In this document: one piece after another, positions 28,163 through 39,975 of the stretch
How positions within the stretch are numbered: position 1 is the stretch's first letter
Layout: each line of letters starts with the position of its first letter
Source: Flavobacteriales bacterium
Lineage (GTDB): Bacteria; Bacteroidota; Bacteroidia; Palsa-965
Reading direction: 5' to 3'
NCBI GenBank assembly: GCA_040377305.1
Contig: JBEIPA010000011.1
Location: 64,001-128,000, forward strand
DNA length: 64,000 nucleotides
Position numbers and translations under genes: made by a program
The notes under the pieces: generated by a model
Told to the model about the DNA's origin: nothing
The model's database searches: none
The model's input: the letters and a program-made list of their open reading frames with translations, nothing else

Positions 28163-28316
28163 TCATCCCTCGGTACGCGCAAGATTTTCAGTCAGGTTAC
28201 TCCGTAATTAATTTATCGCTACTCGGTCTGACAAGTATACGGTGCTTGTCAGACCGAGTAGACTCGTACATCTGCGGAGCAGTTCATCATGCTAATATCG
28301 GCGTACCGAGGAATGA
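28163..28316. repeat. nested inverted-repeat element between leuS and the DoxX-like gene
   Basis: Outer IR 28163-28178/28301-28316; inner perfect 17-bp IR 28219-28235/28245-28261 containing TTGTCAGACCGAG; partial sibling at ~50795-50866. Confidence 0.8.
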
Positions 28317-28325
28317 CAACCGAGA

Positions 28326-29570
28326 CTAGTCTTCATCAATCAACGTAAACTCATTTTCCATCAACGGAAGTTCTTCGGTATGCAACCGAACAACATTCAA
28401 TCGTCCATACATGTGATCGAATACTCCGAGAAATTCCAGTGTGTCTCCATTGATTTCTCTCCACGTGAATTTCATGTCATCGTAGCGTATTGTCTTTGAT
28501 GTCGTATCAATGGACATGGGATAATCTACCATTTCTCCACTGTAGTATTCGAAAATCACATAACCCCTTCGATGAATAAATATTCGTGAAGGAAGATTGT
28601 GAGCAGTTGAGATTGTAGTGTCGGGAAATGCGGAATTTACAATTTGCACGTCATACGCCCCACACATCGGCGGCCGTTCACTCACATCATCATTAAACGT
28701 TCCTGTTTCGGTGTACGGATAGTGTGATTCTGCGAGGAGCAATGCAATCGCCGCAACTTTTAGAACCGGAGAAATCCACTTCTTACTTGGAGCAATCACC
28801 ATCGCAGGATACTTCCATTCTTCGGTCGCTTTTCCTGTGAACAACGCCACAATTCTTTTTCTTCCCGGAATCAAAATCACCAGCGACATGATCAGCAGCA
28901 TCATCGAATGTAATTTCACCGTGATGTCGAATCCGAAATTCACGGCAACAACATTTGTCATGACAAGCACCGTGATGAATGCTCCGATCAACGTCGTTCT
29001 CCGGAAGAGCAAAAGGATTGCCGGAACAATTTCAATGAGGCCCATGAACATGGAGTAGGAGCGCGACGTTCCCATGCTTGTCCAATAGAGTATATCGCGG
29101 TGCATTTCACCAACGCGTGTGTAGAGAATATTCGGCTCAGGCAACATGAATTGCCATTTGTACAGCTTGGAGAATCCGTACACAAATAAATTCAGCGCAA
29201 CGAAATACCGCAATAATGTTAAAGTGATGGGGTGAAATTTTGTCAGACTGAGCGGATCCCGATAGCTATCGGGAGAAGGCGACAAAATCGTCCACACACT
29301 TGCGGTGATCATCGCAATCATCGCCAGATTAAAAACGTGAACGCAAACGAGCAGTGAATCAGAATAGAATTTATCGGCTCCCAATAAATTCACACCGAAG
29401 AACAACATGCCGGTTTGTTCCGCGAGCCATTTGAAAGGAACCGTGACTACATCGAACCAGAATTCGATCAGGTAGTAGTCGAATGTCAGGGTAAATACGT
29501 ACAGGAAAAAAAAGACTGAGGCGAATCGCCAGAGCCATGATTTGAGTTTTTCCTGTGGAATTGAGGGCAT
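28326..29570 (-). CDS. DoxX-like polytopic membrane protein with C-terminal soluble domain
   Basis: About 8 TM; YGFSKL...QF, W.SMG.S..YS.F.G.IE, LLLFRRT..IGA, NV..VNF.FDI.VKL motifs typical of Bacteroidota DoxX-like proteins. Confidence 0.75.
   Translation of the reverse strand: MPSIPQEKLKSWLWRFASVFFFLYVFTLTFDYYLIEFWFDVVTVPFKWLAEQTGMLFFGVNLLGADKFYSDSLLVCVHVFNLAMIAMITASVWTILSPSPDSYRDPLSLTKFHPITLTLLRYFVALNLFVYGFSKLYKWQFMLPEPNILYTRVGEMHRDILYWTSMGTSRSYSMFMGLIEIVPAILLLFRRTTLIGAFITVLVMTNVVAVNFGFDITVKLHSMMLLIMSLVILIPGRKRIVALFTGKATEEWKYPAMVIAPSKKWISPVLKVAAIALLLAESHYPYTETGTFNDDVSERPPMCGAYDVQIVNSAFPDTTISTAHNLPSRIFIHRRGYVIFEYYSGEMVDYPMSIDTTSKTIRYDDMKFTWREINGDTLEFLGVFDHMYGRLNVVRLHTEELPLMENEFTLIDED
29240..29285. 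repeat. REP with nested 18-bp palindrome inside the DoxX-like gene
   Basis: TTGTCAGACTGAGCGGA-TCCCGATAGCTATCGGGA-GAAGGCGACAA; translated as LSPSPDSYRDPLSLT. Confidence 0.85.
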
Positions 29571-29580
29571 AATTGCGTCT

Positions 29581-29641
29581 TGTACAAAGAACCGACAAAA
29601 AAGTTCATTTCTGGTGAACCTTCACTTTTATTGGGTGTACA
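29581..29641. promoter_or_regulatory. back-to-back ECF-type promoters TGAACY-N15-TGTACA
   Basis: Minus strand: TGAACT 29602-29607, TGTACA 29581-29586. Plus strand: TGAACC 29615-29620, TGTACA 29636-29641. Confidence 0.7.
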
Positions 29642-29661
29642 GGGATCAAACGCGACTATTT

Positions 29662-29913
29662 ATGAGCCGTATTCTTATGCTAGCAGCTTTCGTTTTTCTG
29701 TCTTTGAATTCTGATGCGCAGAGTGACAACTATGGCGGCGTTGGTGGACCCTATACACCGATGAAGTATGTCGTGCATATTGATTCAGTTAGTAAGACCG
29801 AGGATGATTCGGTTTTGCCGGCTGATGACTCAACTGATTCTCAACACCCGAAATTGCAGACCACAGAACTTAACGCATACGGTAAAACACTTTCAAGCCT
29901 CACAGAAAAATGA
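29662..29913 (+). CDS. small secreted protein, paralog 1 (lacks the His motif)
   Basis: 83 aa; signal peptide ending DAQ; DNYGG.GGPY.P; C-terminal LNAYGK. Confidence 0.7.
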   Translation: MSRILMLAAFVFLSLNSDAQSDNYGGVGGPYTPMKYVVHIDSVSKTEDDSVLPADDSTDSQHPKLQTTELNAYGKTLSSLTEK

Positions 29914-30242
29914 AAACATTATTCACGATTATCTTGCTGACTGCAGTATTCGCACTGAATGCTCAAACCCGCCGCATCGCTCACCGTTTTCACAGCGGAA
30001 CGAACATTGAACGTTACGATGGTCAGGATGGAAATTATGGCGCGCCGTATATTCCGTATAAGAGGATCACGGTAACCGACACGTTGCGCGAGACGCATGG
30101 AAAAGATACGGTCATGCGTTTGCGGGACACAACGTATTATATTCTGGATACTACTAACTTGCACCAGAGCCGTGTCGACAGCAACCTGAACGATGTTCGC
30201 GAATACGGCAAGATTTGTTCACGCTACACGGATTCAAAATGA
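29910..30242 (+). CDS. small secreted protein, paralog 2 (IAHRFHSG motif)
   Basis: Signal peptide, then QTRRIAHRFHSG..RYDGQDGNYG; ATGA overlap with the previous gene. Confidence 0.8.
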   Translation: MKTLFTIILLTAVFALNAQTRRIAHRFHSGTNIERYDGQDGNYGAPYIPYKRITVTDTLRETHGKDTVMRLRDTTYYILDTTNLHQSRVDSNLNDVREYGKICSRYTDSK

Positions 30243-30562
30243 AGTTGAGTATTACCATTCTTTTCCTCGTTGTTGCAGTTGCAGTTCACGCGCAGACACG
30301 ACGTATTGCACATCGTTTTCACAGCGGTGCAGATCATGTACGTTATGATGGGAACGATGGAAATTACGGTGACCCCGGGCCATCGATGATTCTGATTCAC
30401 CTTGAGTCTGGCCGCGATACTGCAGTCTGGCCCTGGGATTCACTTGCAGCGCCGATGTATCTTGATACAACTCCGCGTGCCATGATTCATCCGCGCATGG
30501 GTCGACAAGAAGACATTCGCAACATGGGTAGTGTTACACATCGTCTTATCACAAAATCATGA
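30239..30562 (+). CDS. small secreted protein, paralog 3 (IAHRFHSG motif)
   Basis: QTRRIAHRFHSG..RYDGNDGNYG...HLESGRDT.VWPWDS; start moved to 30239 (ATGA overlap). Confidence 0.8.
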   Translation: MKLSITILFLVVAVAVHAQTRRIAHRFHSGADHVRYDGNDGNYGDPGPSMILIHLESGRDTAVWPWDSLAAPMYLDTTPRAMIHPRMGRQEDIRNMGSVTHRLITKS

Positions 30563-30879
30563 AGACCATATTCACTTTTGTATTCATGCTTACGGTTGCA
30601 ATCGGCTTTGCACAAACGAATCGCATTGCACATCGTTCCCACAGTGGGAAAAAGAATTCAACGTACAGTTCAACGGAAGGATCGTACGGAAAAGTTGCCC
30701 CGCGCAAAGTGAAAGTGCATCTCGAATCAGGTAAAGACACCATGGTTTATCCCTGGGATTCAATCGCACGTCCGTACTATCTGGACAAAGACGGTCAGCC
30801 GAAATACAACGAAGTCGGTCACAAACCAATTGAAACTGCGAAAGAAATCGGACATGTTGCCGGGAAGTTGGTGATGTAG
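30559..30879 (+). CDS. small secreted protein, paralog 4 (IAHRSHSG motif)
   Basis: QTNRIAHRSHSG...EGSYG...HLESGKDT.VYPWDS; ATGA overlap. Confidence 0.8.
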   Translation: MKTIFTFVFMLTVAIGFAQTNRIAHRSHSGKKNSTYSSTEGSYGKVAPRKVKVHLESGKDTMVYPWDSIARPYYLDKDGQPKYNEVGHKPIETAKEIGHVAGKLVM

Positions 30880-30923: not shown

Positions 30924-32333
30924 TTAAATGTGCTTCTCCTTCCTCTTCTTCCCATTTTCATCCCAATAATACCACGTCTTTATTTTCGTGCCATTGAGAT
31001 AAGTGCCTTTCGATTTCTTCTTTCCGTTCTCGTAAAATTCTTCCCACTCTCCGTCTTCTTTTCCGAAAGTATACTGACCGCGCACTTTTACTTTGCCGTT
31101 TTCGTAATATAGCGCATAAATGCCGTGAAACGTTGCATCACTGTATGAACGCATTTCTTTTGGATGACCGTTCTCGTAGAAGTACATCCATGTGCCTTCT
31201 TTTTTTCCTTTCGAGTTGTAGTATCCGGAGTCCTGAAGAATTCCGTTCGGATACCAGCGTTTCGATTCACCCGCCAGAACTCCGTTCATATAGTTCTGTT
31301 GCAAAAGTTTCTTTCCGGTTGAATCCCATTTTTCCTGAAGACCTTCCAGTTTTCCATTCCCATTGTGAAATGAAACTTCTTGCTGCTTTCCGTTTTCGTA
31401 CCACTGTTCCTTTTTACCGTATGGAATCCCATTGGAGTACTCTGATCTCAATATCAAATTACCATTCTCATAATAGGCTTCCTGCAAACCATCGAATTCC
31501 CCGTTTTTAAATCTCGCCTTTGCCTTTATATTTCCATTGTCATACCATTCAGTTGCTACACCTTCAAGTTTTCCGGTTACTGAATAATGCGACTCGGATC
31601 TGATTTTTCCATTCTCATGCCACTTGGTCATCTTCCCCATTGGTTTGCCGTTGGAGTAGGTTGCGAACGAAGCTGTTGTTCCATTCTCGTGATACGTCAC
31701 CCAATCACCTGTTTGTTTATCATCGGCATAATCACCCTTCGTGTACAGTTTTCCGCTCTGATAATAAGATTCATAAGAACCATTTTTTCTGCCGTCTTTC
31801 ATCATGTACTTCTCGATAACGAACCCACTATCGTTATAAGTCTTCCATAATCCTTCCTGCACATCACAAACTTTTATTCCCGTTGCTTTGATTGCACCAC
31901 TTGGGTAATGAAGGGTATCCAACACCGGGACTCCGTACTCATACTTGGAAAATTTCACCCGCGTGTCTTTGCGAAACTGATTTCTCTTTTCACCATTCAT
32001 CGAGATGTCAGAAGTTTCCTCAAGCACTTTGAACTTCACCGTTTTTCCTTTTACAGATACGACCTCAACAATTCCAATACTCATCCAACCGGAAACGTTC
32101 GACTTGAAAATTTTCGTTTCAAACTGCTTGTGCATTTCTCCTTTGTCGCCCGGACGAAGTGATTCTTCTTCGTTGAGTTGCATGACCGGAAGCTTATCGC
32201 TGTCAGTAGTGAGCATTCCCTCAATGGAATAAGTTGCCGCATCTGAGCATTTTACTTCGCCCGAGTCCTGACTGTAAACAGGAATAACAATTTGATGCAG
32301 AATCAGAATGAGCAGCGAAATAAATTTGTGCAT
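30924..32333 (-). CDS. secreted MORN-variant (YwqK-like) repeat protein with an N-terminal beta domain
   Basis: Signal peptide; about 13 W/Y..YENG repeats. Confidence 0.85.
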   Translation of the reverse strand: MHKFISLLILILHQIVIPVYSQDSGEVKCSDAATYSIEGMLTTDSDKLPVMQLNEEESLRPGDKGEMHKQFETKIFKSNVSGWMSIGIVEVVSVKGKTVKFKVLEETSDISMNGEKRNQFRKDTRVKFSKYEYGVPVLDTLHYPSGAIKATGIKVCDVQEGLWKTYNDSGFVIEKYMMKDGRKNGSYESYYQSGKLYTKGDYADDKQTGDWVTYHENGTTASFATYSNGKPMGKMTKWHENGKIRSESHYSVTGKLEGVATEWYDNGNIKAKARFKNGEFDGLQEAYYENGNLILRSEYSNGIPYGKKEQWYENGKQQEVSFHNGNGKLEGLQEKWDSTGKKLLQQNYMNGVLAGESKRWYPNGILQDSGYYNSKGKKEGTWMYFYENGHPKEMRSYSDATFHGIYALYYENGKVKVRGQYTFGKEDGEWEEFYENGKKKSKGTYLNGTKIKTWYYWDENGKKRKEKHI

Positions 32334-36324: not shown

Positions 36325-36810
36325 ATGACCGTAGACGAATTTAACCGCTGCGTGGACCTGTACGCCGATAGCTTGTACCGGTTCATATTGAAAAACGTAA
36401 AGGACAAAGACAAAGCGAAAGACATTGTCCAGGACACGTATGAAAAACTCTGGGTGAAAGTTTCGGAAACCGAAGCGAAGAACGCAAAGTCGTACATGTT
36501 CACAACAGGATACCGCACCATGATTGACTATCTGCGAAAAGATGCGCGTCAAGGATCAATGGAAGAAGCGCCGATGATTGCAGTATCGCATAACAAGCAG
36601 TACAGCGACCTGAAGGAAATTCTGAATGAAGCTTTGAATAAGCTGCCCGATATTCAACGCTCCGTAATTCTTCTCCGCGACTACGAAGGATATTCATACA
36701 CAGAAATAGGACAAATCACGAACCTCAACGAATCGCAAGTGAAAGTTTACATTTTCCGCGCAAGAACATTTTTGAAAAACTACATTGGCAGTATTGAGAA
36801 AGTCGTGTAG
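36325..36810 (+). CDS. ECF sigma-70 family RNA polymerase sigma factor
   Basis: AKDIVQDTY.KLW (region 2); LP..QRSVILLRDYEGYSY.EI...QVKVYIFRAR (region 4). Confidence 0.95.
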   Translation: MTVDEFNRCVDLYADSLYRFILKNVKDKDKAKDIVQDTYEKLWVKVSETEAKNAKSYMFTTGYRTMIDYLRKDARQGSMEEAPMIAVSHNKQYSDLKEILNEALNKLPDIQRSVILLRDYEGYSYTEIGQITNLNESQVKVYIFRARTFLKNYIGSIEKVV

Positions 36811-36894
36811 TTTGTCAGACCGAGCGGAGTCGAGGGCGACAAGACAAGAACATTTTTGAAAAACTACATTGGCAGTATTGAGAAAGTCGTATAA
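36761..36894 (+). repeat. direct duplication of the sigma gene 3' end flanking a 31-bp REP
   Basis: 46 bp identical (36761-36806 = 36845-36890); last codon and stop read GTG TAG vs GTA TAA. Confidence 0.92.
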
Positions 36895-36936
36895 CCACAT
36901 TGGCATCTACTAATCAGAATCGAAAATCAACTAATC

Positions 36937-38742
36937 GTGAACATTAACCGCAATAACGCCGAAGCCTTCTTCCTCGATTACTACGAGGGGAACTTGTCCG
37001 AAGGACAGGTGGCCGAGATGTTTGCGTTCCTGAAAGCGAATCATGATCTGCGTGAAGTGTTTGAAGCTTTTTCCAATATTCAGTTGGATGCCGAAGATGA
37101 TTCCGACTCGACACTCATTCATCATTCCTCTTCCGACCGAACTCCCGATTTCTCTTTCCTGAAGAAAGAACCTGTTGTTGATATTCACGAGAAAGCTCAG
37201 GAGTGGATGGTTGATTTTGTGGAGGGAACTATTTCTGTTGAAGACAATACTTCGCTCGGGAAATACCTGGCTGAAAATCCTTCGAAGCGTGAAGAACTTG
37301 CAGCTTTTGAGAACACCGTATTACGTGCAGACGAAAACGAAACAATCGGCGATCTCAGTAGCCTGAAGAAAGAAACGGCGATCACGTCCGAGAATTTCGA
37401 GCACTATGCAATTGCATTGATTGAAGGAACCATTTCTCCGAATGAGAAATCGCTCCTTGAGTCATTTGTGCTCACGCATCCTGAGTTCAGTATTCAACTC
37501 GATTCATTCCGGGATTCTGTTCAGAAAGCAGACGAGTCGATTGTATTTGACGCGAAATCGTCTTTGAAGCGTTCTTCAGTTGTGGTTACCAAAGACAACA
37601 TCGAAGAATTGCTCTTTGATAAAACAGAAGGACAACTTGCCTCTCACGAAGAAGCAGCAGTGGATGCATTCCTTGCTGCAAATCCGGAATACAAAAACGA
37701 TCTCGGGTTATTGGCGAAGACAAAACTCGTTCCTGATACAACTGAAACGTTTGACGCGAAAGACAAACTCAAGCGCGGAGTAACTTTGATCAACGAAAGT
37801 AACTTCGAACAGTATTTGATTTCGGCTTCAGAAGGATTGCTTAACCGCGAGGAGTTGAAGGCGTTCAATTCATTTGTTGTCACACATCCGAAATACAGAA
37901 ATGCACTTGCTCTTTACGCTGCAACAAAATTGCAACCGGATATGTCTGTCGTGTACGACGACAAAGAAGGACTGAAGCGCAAAGAAAAAGGTGCGATCAT
38001 CTGGTTCAGCGTAGGATTCCGTTATGCGGCGGCAGCTGTGCTCGTGATTTTGCTCAGCGTTTATTTCTGGACGAAGTTCGATGCTTCTAATCAGGGAGAT
38101 GTTGAAATGGCGGATAAAACGAAGCAGAATTTCCAGAACAATGACGTGATCCCACTCGATAACAATACGCAGCCGGGCACGAATCCAAACGCGCTTGCAA
38201 GCAACACCGACGAAAACACTTCAAAGTTTCCGGAGTGGAACACAAACAATGCAAACAAGGATGACGTGAACGGATCGCGCAAGGTTGTGGATCCTAATCC
38301 GGAGGAAAATATTCTTGTTGCAACTTTCACACCGATAACAATCCTGGTGTCAAGTATTCCGAATGGGGCAAACGAAAGTGTTGCATTCTCGGGGGCGTTA
38401 TATGACGTTGTATTCAACGACAACAACAAGACGCAACCTGTTGCCGAAGTTCCTGCAGATGATTACATCACTCCGGGACAATTAGCAATGCGTTGGATGA
38501 AAGACAAGATTGACGGCACTGATCCTATGCTGGTAAGTGGGCAGGATGATGTTGTGAACACATGGAGTGCACCGGGCAGTAAGCCAGATCCAAAAGACAA
38601 AAACGTCGATGGAATGGACATCACCGAAAGTGCAGTGAACCGTGTTGGGCAATCGGCTGCTCATGGCAATATCGCTATGGAGCAGCGCAAGGACGGAACG
38701 TATCTGCAGCTGTGGAATTACGAAGTGCGTGTGGGGAAGTAG
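36937..38742 (+). CDS. putative anti-sigma factor with five tandem ~67-aa N-terminal repeats and one TM helix
   Basis: Directly downstream of the ECF sigma; repeat I...N.E......EG.L...E......F...P...L......LKR; TM at RYAAAAVLVILLSVYFW. Confidence 0.8.
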   Translation: MNINRNNAEAFFLDYYEGNLSEGQVAEMFAFLKANHDLREVFEAFSNIQLDAEDDSDSTLIHHSSSDRTPDFSFLKKEPVVDIHEKAQEWMVDFVEGTISVEDNTSLGKYLAENPSKREELAAFENTVLRADENETIGDLSSLKKETAITSENFEHYAIALIEGTISPNEKSLLESFVLTHPEFSIQLDSFRDSVQKADESIVFDAKSSLKRSSVVVTKDNIEELLFDKTEGQLASHEEAAVDAFLAANPEYKNDLGLLAKTKLVPDTTETFDAKDKLKRGVTLINESNFEQYLISASEGLLNREELKAFNSFVVTHPKYRNALALYAATKLQPDMSVVYDDKEGLKRKEKGAIIWFSVGFRYAAAAVLVILLSVYFWTKFDASNQGDVEMADKTKQNFQNNDVIPLDNNTQPGTNPNALASNTDENTSKFPEWNTNNANKDDVNGSRKVVDPNPEENILVATFTPITILVSSIPNGANESVAFSGALYDVVFNDNNKTQPVAEVPADDYITPGQLAMRWMKDKIDGTDPMLVSGQDDVVNTWSAPGSKPDPKDKNVDGMDITESAVNRVGQSAAHGNIAMEQRKDGTYLQLWNYEVRVGK

Positions 38743-39639: not shown

Positions 39640-39975
39640 TTACTTATTCTTCGCATGTCCTGGATTTGTAGACTGCGGATGATGTGGGTTATTCGGATTT
39701 TTATTCCACCCTTTTTTCTTTCCGTGATTCGCTCCGTTGTTTCCTTTTTTGTCTTTCGGATTCTTCACCTGATCAGGAGCAGGAGCTGTTGTGCCTCCCG
39801 GAGTTGATGTGCCCGGACGTGGTGTTGGAGCTGGAGCCGGTGGAGCTGGAGCTGGAGGTGCAGGAAGTGTTGGAGGTGCAGGTGTTGTTCCCGGACGTGG
39901 ATCACCAGGACCGCCTGCGTATACTGTTCCAAACATCATTACGATTGCGATTGCAGTTGCGAGTGTGGTTTTCAT
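39640..39975 (-). CDS. small secreted Pro-rich basic protein with GKKKGW..N..NPH.P motif
   Basis: Signal peptide; PAPP repeats; NHGKKKGWNKNPNNPHHP. Confidence 0.75.
   Translation of the reverse strand: MKTTLATAIAIVMMFGTVYAGGPGDPRPGTTPAPPTLPAPPAPAPPAPAPTPRPGTSTPGGTTAPAPDQVKNPKDKKGNNGANHGKKKGWNKNPNNPHHPQSTNPGHAKNK

Follow-up and report, generated by a model that had tools for sequence, protein, structure and literature searches.

What does a bacterium do with a membrane protein whose gene stands back to back with a chain of genes for small secreted peptides? The locus that raises this question lies in a 64,000-nucleotide stretch of DNA from a Flavobacteriales bacterium (the window, which means that stretch at its full length), and its features are collected in Table 1. 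The membrane gene and p1 diverge from a 91-bp gap (29571-29661) and the four peptide ORFs are coupled, as first described, through ATGA overlaps at 3/3 junctions. On its other side the membrane gene converges on a gene that we take, from its sequence, to be leuS-like, and the hairpin between the two is possibly a terminator or a REP-like element. Throughout the genus, the module keeps its place next to this one housekeeping gene.

Table 1. Features of the locus, in positions of the window.
Feature	Position	Strand	Description
Membrane gene	28326-29570	(-)	414 aa
p1	29662-29913	(+)	83 aa; paralog resembling p2, no His segment between Q1 and NYG; 3 O-glycosylation sequons
p2	29910-30242	(+)	110 aa; signal peptide, N-terminal motif, tail with 4 sequons
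p3	30239-30562	(+)	107 aa; signal peptide, N-terminal motif, tail with 3 sequons
p4	30559-30879	(+)	106 aa; signal peptide, N-terminal motif (SYG variant), tail with 2 sequons
ECF-type promoter motif TGAACT-N15-TGTACA	29581-29607	(-)	10 nt upstream of the membrane gene start codon
ECF-type promoter motif TGAACC-N15-TGTACA	29615-29641	(+)	20 nt upstream of p1
Perfect 17-bp hairpin	28219..28261	(.)	between the membrane gene and the converging, presumably leuS-like gene

The preliminary description proposed that peptides and membrane protein form one linked module, and the data bear this out: of 80 genome loci, 78 have a DoxX-clan membrane gene no more than 5 kb away, as do 76 of 80 metagenome loci. 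In the reverse direction, 18/18 membrane proteins of the linked clade have a peptide neighbour, as opposed to 0/12 of a sister clade (within 1.5 kb). The linkage is kept in both layouts (21 divergent and 57 co-oriented loci), and in one genome the two genes are separated, both being present. Because the peptide (156 of 160 loci) and the membrane gene (152) are the only clusters to recur broadly, the next one reaching 17, no other linked maturase is available; in particular, no recurring cluster in the 160 loci corresponds to MNIO (DUF692), DUF2063/RRE or radical SAM (HxsB, HxsC) genes. On a quick tree, made from 68 of 104 rows, the linked membrane proteins form one clade and the linkage thus does not stand for many independent events. 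Fusions of peptide and membrane protein were absent from the 133 peptide-HMM and 120 membrane-HMM matches. In one lineage, 15 loci adjoin a gene that we presume, from its sequence, to be cation-efflux-like, and locus L110 adjoins a separate chryseobasin-related cluster.

The promoter sequences suggest that both halves of the module answer to a single ECF sigma factor, which likely activates them together. The pattern TGAACY-N15-TGTACA does occur on both strands of the gap, and 7 bp separate the two -35 boxes, as reported; these are its only 2 matches in the entire window, and 0/100 shuffles matched. The motif stands upstream of 34/78 related arrays (control, 12/458) with this spacing only, the spacings 12-15 and 17-20 giving 0 of 78. 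The reverse copy is tied to orientation (8/21 divergent loci against 0/55 co-oriented ones), and the copy on the membrane gene side is conserved in genomes G015 and G013. One autoregulated ECF sigma factor was found in 10/10 and 19/19 motif-bearing genomes; its sigma/anti-sigma operon (G000:C45:102190-104902) carries the same motif upstream, as do 9 orthologous loci, a count of loci with enough flank that leaves out 3 loci that were too short. ECF control as first suggested therefore gains a conserved, orientation-tied motif and an identifiable stress sigma factor predicted to read it in a large share of lineages, but it is not universal, 44/78 arrays being without the motif. The search for an ECF group gave no assignment for the sigma factor, the best match (PRK12513) falling below the cut-off.

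A family of small, predicted secreted peptides beside one dedicated inner-membrane protein is, on present sequences, kept by many environmental Bacteroidota, and it has no model in Pfam, NCBIfam or PADLOC. Members were found in 41/301 genomes of the class. Carriers in culture include Flavobacterium hercynium DSM 18292 and Brumimicrobium salinarum LHR20, the latter with both the promoter motif and the sigma factor. A phylum-wide peptide search found at least 12/401 genomes (12 candidates were scored per genome, and this is not a prevalence figure), and a single-sequence search with p2 at least 4/26 genomes of the same genus, further members being found later in G026 and G008. An ESM Atlas search with p3 gave no usable match and a pattern search of viral contigs gave none.

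The peptides consist of a signal peptide, the motif QTKxIAx(K/R)SHSG..NFG and a variable tail; secretion and pyroglutamate formation are predicted from sequence and from the Bacteroidetes Q-rule (PMC5837995). In the window, we recover the shared mature start QT(R/N)RIAHR(F/S)HSG..(D/E)G(N/S)YG of p2-p4 and the segment HLESG(R/K)DT..PWDS..P.YLD common to p3 and p4. Of the likeness seen between p1 and p2, the C-terminal YGK is indeed shared but the NYG-to-PY spacing is not (4 residues in p1, 1 in p2). Among 5.8 billion clusters only p1 itself matched a search for p1-like peptides at near length, and p1 is likely a one-off, lineage-specific deletion derivative. The HxxH motif, described as conserved, does not hold up in the family: F, L, Y, W or A takes the place of the first His in 13/190 peptides, 10 of the 13 in loci found via the membrane protein and not via the His pattern, while the second (His10) is kept in 189/190. 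Since searching with QT[KRA]xIAH[RK][SA]H makes conservation of the motif look higher than it is, His7 was judged on loci found through the membrane protein first. Strictly invariant are only Q1, T2 and the final G, Asn being replaced in 13/190 peptides. The length from Q1 to G is fixed, at 26 in 109/190 peptides and 34 in 52/190; residues that track the 26 or 34 spacer were considered as evidence of co-evolution and rejected, since they follow one lineage. With 1-5 paralogs per single membrane gene, a fixed Q1-to-G length and variable tails, the design is precursor-like. In six polyproteins, a hydrophobic, signal-like segment resembling a cleavage site precedes every internal motif.

The tails are likely sugar-coated, judging from their sequons: the motif D-(S/T)-(A/I/L/V/M/T) of Bacteroidota O-glycoproteins (PMC8550257 and PMC12871550) occurs 283 times in 107 tails, against 29.7±5.2 in shuffled ones, an enrichment of about tenfold, and the ..DT.. 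and ..DS.. motifs singled out earlier in the window are partly such sequons. The tails have a basic character, with a median net charge of +6, and 36/107 end in a C-terminal TM segment, about two thirds being without one. Cys occurs in 44/107 tails and is missing from the motif consensus; the mature parts of p1, p3 and p4 have none and that of p2 has one.

The membrane protein combines N-terminal helices, a DoxX-clan four-helix core (about residues 110-238), a last TM segment and a lipocalin-like beta-barrel (residues 298-397; Z 7-8 against lipocalins), as seen in AF2 models with pLDDT 92 and 93; positive-inside counts place the barrel on the periplasmic side. The label "DoxX-like" is justified at clan level, through weak matches of relatives, and not by the window protein itself, which has no Pfam or NCBIfam match. 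Among 120 relatives, MauE was matched in 36 (best E 8.8e-5), DoxX in 14 (both counted at E<=0.1) and DUF417 in 9; in another comparison, relatives scored 14.7-17.4 bits against gathering cut-offs of 23.6 and 27 for the clan (PF07681, PF07291, PF04224). Profile and fold do place the family in the clan, by the four-helix core with G..K and a conserved Glu; G132, K135 and E180 are invariant. Names given to related proteins agree (YphA DoxX/SURF4 at JGI; DoxX-clan names for an Atlas cluster at 0.97). NACHO/TMEM35A belongs to the DoxX family. It tops two structure searches and is the best solved match to the core (PDB 9H9E; Z 7.4, rmsd 2.8, 111/133 residues, 17% identity), a Z under 13 that perhaps reflects a common helical-bundle arrangement. 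Searched against PDB sequences, the membrane-protein profile gave 0 matches, and Foldseek gave none at E<=0.001 for either model. The residues D71, K135, Q140, W163, E180, N211, D215 and K219 are invariant in the linked and sister clades, whereas E145-P-N147, D159, N293-D294, R299, H333-R334, Y337 and D349 are clade-specific and predicted to face the periplasm, H333 (97%) and D349 (97%) being specific to the peptide-linked clade. Conservation is concentrated on polar residues and not on lipid-facing surfaces; the loops in which the invariant ones lie are periplasmic by positive-inside counts.

We tentatively favour, at somewhat less than even confidence, a two-part envelope module in which the dedicated DoxX-clan protein binds and modifies the free N-terminal motif of the peptides, as a RiPP maturase facing the periplasm would. 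Once exported by Sec and cleaved before a Gln that is then cyclised to pyroglutamate (the Q-rule), the peptides would present a free motif on tails that may serve as O-glycosylated stalks, about one third of them membrane-anchored. The basic motif QTKxIAx(K/R)SHSG would dock on the clade-specific periplasmic residues, and the residues invariant in both clades could form a catalytic site acting inside the fixed 26- or 34-residue segment, with His10 or the N-aromatic-G end as best candidates. The parts of this reading differ in strength. Direct recognition of the motif by the membrane protein is highly probable; that the membrane protein is catalytic is a matter on which we lean slightly to the negative. 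Several points speak against the reading: (i) the sister clade, without a peptide neighbour, keeps the same invariant residues, (ii) the best solved match is an assembly chaperone, (iii) the link to GGCX and HTTM is weak, (iv) bufferin modification does not need the DoxX protein BufD1 (PMC11626156), (v) so few residues of the motif are strictly invariant and (vi) the linkage amounts to one clade. Among the matches that Foldseek lists for the TM model, GGCX chains have the best TM-scores (0.30-0.31, with a weak E of 1.3-1.6); they reach Z 4.2-5.2 in VIA (5.0-5.2 over GGCX residues 61-186, with K218 outside), but GGCX is absent from the top 50 of a wide VIA search; hhalign against HTTM gave a probability of 6% (E 0.006), and no HTTM domain (PF05090) was found among the Pfam matches of 120 members or in G000. 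Prediction of a complex between residues 8-414 of the membrane protein and residues 19-58 of p3, with alignments, scored 0.01 and gives no verdict either way. The boldest version is doubtful: a new class of periplasmic RiPP-like glycopeptides with the DoxX-clan protein as sole maturase, which would recognise the pyroglutamyl motif via its lipocalin-like domain and act on His10 or the N-aromatic-G end by quinone-linked, carboxylase-related chemistry. The idea that the family might instead supply the missing transferase of general O-glycosylation (PMC12871550) was rejected, since it occurs in so few genomes of the class.

Alternatively, and with a lesser but still serious chance, the peptide may be a stoichiometric partner and not a substrate: the motif would dock and complete a site, in which His10 with H333, D349 and E145 might for example bind a metal or another cofactor, and the resulting envelope complex would protect against stress. 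The near-universal His10, the clade specificity of H333 and D349 and the C-terminal TM segments, which would tether the motif to the membrane, all fit, and a predicted two-gene HTTM-DUF5819 complex (10.64898/2026.08.19.745780) sets a precedent. However, up to 5 diverging paralogs per membrane gene would be unusual for a subunit, no fusion of motif and membrane protein stands among the peptide-HMM and membrane-HMM matches, and locus L243 does without both His.

It is improbable that, in a version that builds on the metal binding suggested in the preliminary description, the peptides are free periplasmic His-based metal buffers, akin to bufferins without the Cys chemistry, with the DoxX-like protein as an accessory. 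The 4-6 His of each of p2-p4 and the cation-efflux-like neighbour of one lineage would suit such a role, and in bufferin and hvf clusters, too, a DoxX gene and a secreted peptide stand together under ECF control. Against it, the first His is dispensable, there is neither a conserved Cys nor a linked MNIO, and the linkage is near-obligate here, whereas BufD1, a DoxX protein, is dispensable for bufferin modification and buf2 comes without DoxX (PMC11626156).

We give the same low chance to a non-catalytic, NACHO-like role as chaperone or receptor, with the membrane protein holding, folding or passing on these glycopeptides. This role would agree with the top match, NACHO/TMEM35A being an intramembrane assembly factor (PMC11565801), but that match may reflect the bundle arrangement, the conserved surface is polar and periplasmic, and most tails have no TM segment. 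A defence or immunity array, in which basic periplasmic peptides block phage DNA entry or neutralise toxins like HxsA, is the least probable of all: weak HxsA3 matches (2/120 members, best E 0.0028), the SHS/HxS-like motif, the basic tails and the diversified paralog arrays are offset by a single motif in place of repeats, the absence of linked radical SAM genes, which HXS needs (PMC13128918), the lack of a PADLOC match in 8/8 proteins, the stable place beside the same housekeeping gene and a conserved stress-type promoter.

The module is a minimal two-gene case, a DoxX-clan protein with one near-obligate, short and synthesizable partner, and this opens DoxX function to direct testing with mass spectrometry and pull-down. 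A further gain is a Bacteroidota ECF sigma factor for which the analysis gives a promoter prediction and first regulon members, together with a peptide family absent from current model libraries. If the sole-maturase version is true, DoxX proteins would gain a first defined peptide substrate, and the DoxX/HTTM fold a minimal model in bacteria. Our search of CC-licensed PMC and bioRxiv literature listed no paper on this module.

Among the systems closest to this one is the peptide-free sister clade of the membrane protein (GSGD..P type; G000:C46:166539-167849), for which the searches made found no function: it has the same architecture and the invariant D71, K135, W163, E180, N211, D215 and K219, and lacks the periplasmic residues of the linked clade. 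NACHO/TMEM35A differs from the membrane protein in being a eukaryotic chaperone of the ER that serves the TM domains of receptors, a 133-residue chain in the structure, without N-terminal helices, barrel or peptide partner. The HXS antiphage system (HxsA-D, PMC13128918) has in common a periplasmic, basic, His-x-Ser effector, and HxsA is matured by dedicated enzymes; its five repeats, peptidoglycan-binding domain and radical SAM maturases are not seen in the module. Bufferin buf1ABCD of Caulobacter vibrioides (PMC11626156) and hvfXABC/oxazolin of Haemophilus influenzae (PMC11252979, PMC7907618) are alike in the Sec-exported small peptide, the DoxX gene and the ECF sigma control, features that are here read from sequence only; the papers cited leave their DoxX genes without a known role. 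MNIO, DUF2063 and conserved Cys are missing here, and the DoxX-clan protein, of 414 aa and with a lipocalin-like domain, is the sole partner and a near-obligate one. GGCX, in which K218 is the catalytic base (10.1101/2025.02.09.637231), and the bacterial HTTM proteins (PF05090; MloH; the DUF5819-HTTM pair) differ in that our family has no HTTM Pfam match, a weak structural likeness (Z ~5) and peptides without a Glu-rich core. They are alike in the membrane helical core with an extracytoplasmic beta domain, in a G-x-x-K motif at the outer helix end, the one around K135 resembling that of bacterial HTTM proteins, and in the logic of the substrate, where a signal peptide is followed by an N-terminal recognition segment and a variable part.

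The peptides and the membrane protein are linked in both directions. In a genome scan (147 pattern matches, 117 confirmed, 80 kept), a membrane gene lay within 5 kb of the peptide at 78 of 80 loci, directly downstream at 57 and divergent at 21; one of the two misses sits at a contig end, and the other, L039, comes from a genome that carries a membrane gene of the linked clade at another site, with no peptide adjoining it. In metagenomes, where 80 loci were retained from 121 matches (84 confirmed), 76 of the 80 had the gene; each of the four misses was flanked by fewer than 800 bases on one side or both. In the reverse direction, a membrane-protein profile, itself built from linked genes, matched 41 of 301 class genomes, and among the best 30 loci a peptide was present within 1.5 kb at 18 of 18 scoring at least 360 bits (window genome included) versus 0 of 12 at or below 277 bits. 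The neighbourhood linkage on which the preliminary description had staked its reading is thus borne out. Only two genes persist throughout the 160 loci, namely the peptide in 156 and the membrane gene in 152; the next neighbour cluster reaches 17. A quick tree of 68 of the 104 sequences split linked and peptide-free groups by one branch (SH-aLRT 100), indicating that the linkage is that of one clade and not of independent events. Order labels of module loci were Flavobacteriales (43), Chitinophagales (13) and smaller groups, with no Bacteroidales among the 62 labelled. Three loci are labelled Burkholderiales (L053), Alphaproteobacteria (L055) and Chryseobacterium (L049); their genes nest within Bacteroidota sequences, L049 belongs to G015, of the window's genus, and the L053 genome holds an ortholog of the sigma factor discussed below. 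These labels are probably wrong and therefore no evidence of transfer. In a single case (L110), the module adjoins a RiPP precursor and a gene that we take, from its sequence, to be MNIO-like.

Re-reading the window returned the five reading frames, three ATGA overlaps, 91-bp gap and peptide motifs as first described, together with the twin TGAACY-N15-TGTACA elements, the only two copies in the 64 kb and found in 0 of 100 shuffles of the window. The five module proteins had no match in Pfam or NCBIfam (best E 0.087), and a search of the genome for peptide paralogs beyond p1-p4 found none. The 14-bp core of a palindrome within the membrane gene occurs 17 times in the genome; because relatives (P0142, P0143, P0146, G015) carry other short insertions in the same loop, this suggests a tolerated REP-like insertion site.

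Coordinates of the module and of associated features
Feature	Location	Strand	Remarks
Membrane gene	window 28326-29570	-	414 aa
16-bp palindrome	window 29258-29273		in frame within membrane gene, cytoplasmic loop
Motif copy	window 29581-29607	-	
Motif copy	window 29615-29641	+	
Peptide array p1-p4	window 29662-30879	+	83, 110, 107, 106 aa
MORN_2-repeat protein	window 30924-32333		convergent with array; adjoins module in closest relatives only
ECF sigma, then putative 601-aa anti-sigma	window 36325-38742		anti-sigma with internal repeats
Small Pro-rich secreted protein	window 39640-39975		basic C-terminal tail
Secreted TPR-like gene, ECF sigma, likely anti-sigma (operon)	G000:C45:102190-104902 (L141:691-3403)		genome's top-scoring motif site upstream
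SIMPL/DUF541 gene pair	G000:C45:227337-229387 (L143)		under motif, as in L252-L256; tandem double promoters in G015, G013, G010
Second ECF sigma and anti-sigma pair	G000:C45:231516-233490 (L142)		weaker motif copy upstream, score 16.5
Distant membrane-gene paralog	L016:5539-6849 (G000:C46)		sister-clade type, peptide-free; invariant residues identical to window protein's
Module beside a chryseobasin-related RiPP precursor	L110:555-1493 (G164)		precursor matches NF050125 at 35.9 bits (cut-off 40)

A peptide profile from 20 close relatives recovered 120 representatives among 1.84 billion sequences (E<=0.001). All begin with a signal peptide and the motif QTKxIAH(R/K)SHSG-x-NFG, whereas their tails are unrelated to one another. 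p1 is p2-like with the His segment deleted, and a separate database search with p1 as query hit p1 alone. Gln1 is an ordinary mature first residue in the phylum (PMC5837995, PMC10653852). Over 190 peptides (146 non-identical loci), in counts biased by the search pattern used to find the loci, 189 retain the second His, 177 the first His and 177 the Asn, and Gln1 lies 26 residues from the final Gly in 109 and 34 in 52. Thirteen peptides lack the first His, 10 of them from loci located via the membrane protein, and the L243 peptide has neither His, so that the HxxH initially singled out as conserved is not the conserved unit. In six polyproteins (P0037, P0039, P0041, P0051, P0052, L027), a hydrophobic signal-like segment precedes each internal motif copy, from which we infer that the motif must finally stand at a free N-terminus. 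The tails contain 283 D-(S/T)-(A/I/L/V/M/T) sequons over 107 sequences (2.3 per 100 residues), the Bacteroidota O-glycosylation motif according to PMC8550257 and PMC12871550, versus 29.7±5.2 after shuffling; 454 crudely predicted secreted proteins of the same genome have 0.76 per 100 residues. A C-terminal TM segment is found in 36 of the 107.

Of 78 arrays, 34 have GAAC-N16-TGTA in the 120 nt ahead of them, compared with 12 of 458 control ORFs; none of the other spacings from 12 to 20 was found upstream of these arrays, and T precedes GAAC in all 34 motif-bearing arrays, though outside the search pattern. The ECF-type control proposed at the outset would thus extend, at fixed spacing, to these relatives but not to the arrays that have no motif. 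A reverse copy accompanies 8 of 21 divergent versus 0 of 55 co-oriented genome loci, and 3 of 14 versus 0 of 56 in metagenomes. The GAAC motif is absent from the available text of the F. psychrophilum promoter paper. The C45 sigma operon is kept across many families, at times with a second, more distant copy, and its first and third genes matched no curated family. Comparison of its sigma factor with known ECF families yielded no group assignment, the best match, PRK12513, staying below the cut-off. Orthologs of this sigma factor (at least 158 bits) occur in all 10 module genomes that carry the motif, in none of the 10 that lack it (best 108 bits) and in 2 of 20 further genomes; a second set gave 19 of 19 versus 6 of 30. 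These are bare counts, without a P value, from related, not independent, genomes. Every ortholog locus with long enough flank has its own motif copy ahead of the operon, which adjoins the module in 15-16 loci. The motif also precedes the SIMPL/DUF541 gene in 5 of 5 sigma-bearing relatives (0 of 1 sigma-less) and a 580-aa protein in 3 of 4 (0 of 4). Since these further likely regulon members are exported proteins, the regulon points to an envelope response. The L142 sigma, with its weaker upstream motif copy, makes a sigma cascade possible. The ECF sigma of the window was rejected as cognate because its upstream region lacks the motif.

The AF2 models of the membrane protein are of high confidence (pLDDT 92 and 93). 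Family members match MauE, DoxX and DUF417 weakly; the modelled core best resembles NACHO/TMEM35A (Z 7.4, rmsd 2.8, 111 aligned; next 6.1) and residues 298-397 lipocalins (Z 7-8), both middling scores. Weak similarity hints at a possible relationship to GGCX/HTTM: the protein has a G-x-x-K motif, and GGCX chains reached the top TM-scores in the Foldseek list. HTTM genes in six relatives (L127-L132) are unrelated to the module; they lie between what we take, from sequence, to be a lipoprotein-like gene upstream and, where the flank reaches, a TonB-receptor-like gene on the other side. Positive-inside counts predict that loops 28-72, 136-170 and 212-220 and the barrel (mean 1.8 sequons) are periplasmic. 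D71, K135, Q140, W163, N211, D215, K219 and, inside a helix, E180 are invariant in both clades, and E145, P146, N147, D159, N293, D294, R299, H333, R334, Y337 and D349 are specific to the linked clade; both sets lie mostly on the predicted periplasmic side.

The membrane protein probably recognises the N-terminal segment of the peptides directly, because: (i) the two-way linkage survives inversion and separation, (ii) the promoters are mirrored, (iii) the N-terminal segment is constrained and (iv) the periplasmic surface is clade-specific. Recognition would occur in the periplasm. There, the membrane protein may act as an enzyme on the peptides as substrates, a candidate to which we give somewhat less than even chances; several diverging paralogs per membrane gene, the fixed segment length, the lack of another linked enzyme and the invariant polar residues favour it over its rivals. 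However, the invariant residues recur in the peptide-free sister clade, NACHO is a chaperone (PMC11565801), DoxX is dispensable in the bufferin system (PMC11626156), and no biosynthetic role is expected for HvfX (PMC11252979). That the peptide is instead a stoichiometric subunit of the membrane protein we hold to be unlikely, if a serious contender; a new maturase class is rather doubtful. The resemblance to NACHO notwithstanding, a chaperone is improbable, and peptides acting as a free metal buffer equally so. Least probable of all is a defence array, and PADLOC returned no match for the five module proteins.

No published description of the module was found in openly licensed PMC and bioRxiv literature. 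It works partly like the ECF-controlled bufferin/hvf clusters (PMC7907618) and is similar in logic to propeptide-guided carboxylation (10.1101/2025.02.09.637231; 10.64898/2026.08.19.745780), yet it cannot be classed with either, nor with HXS (PMC13128918). We rate the module as one of the kind in which a secreted peptide is paired with a dedicated membrane partner.
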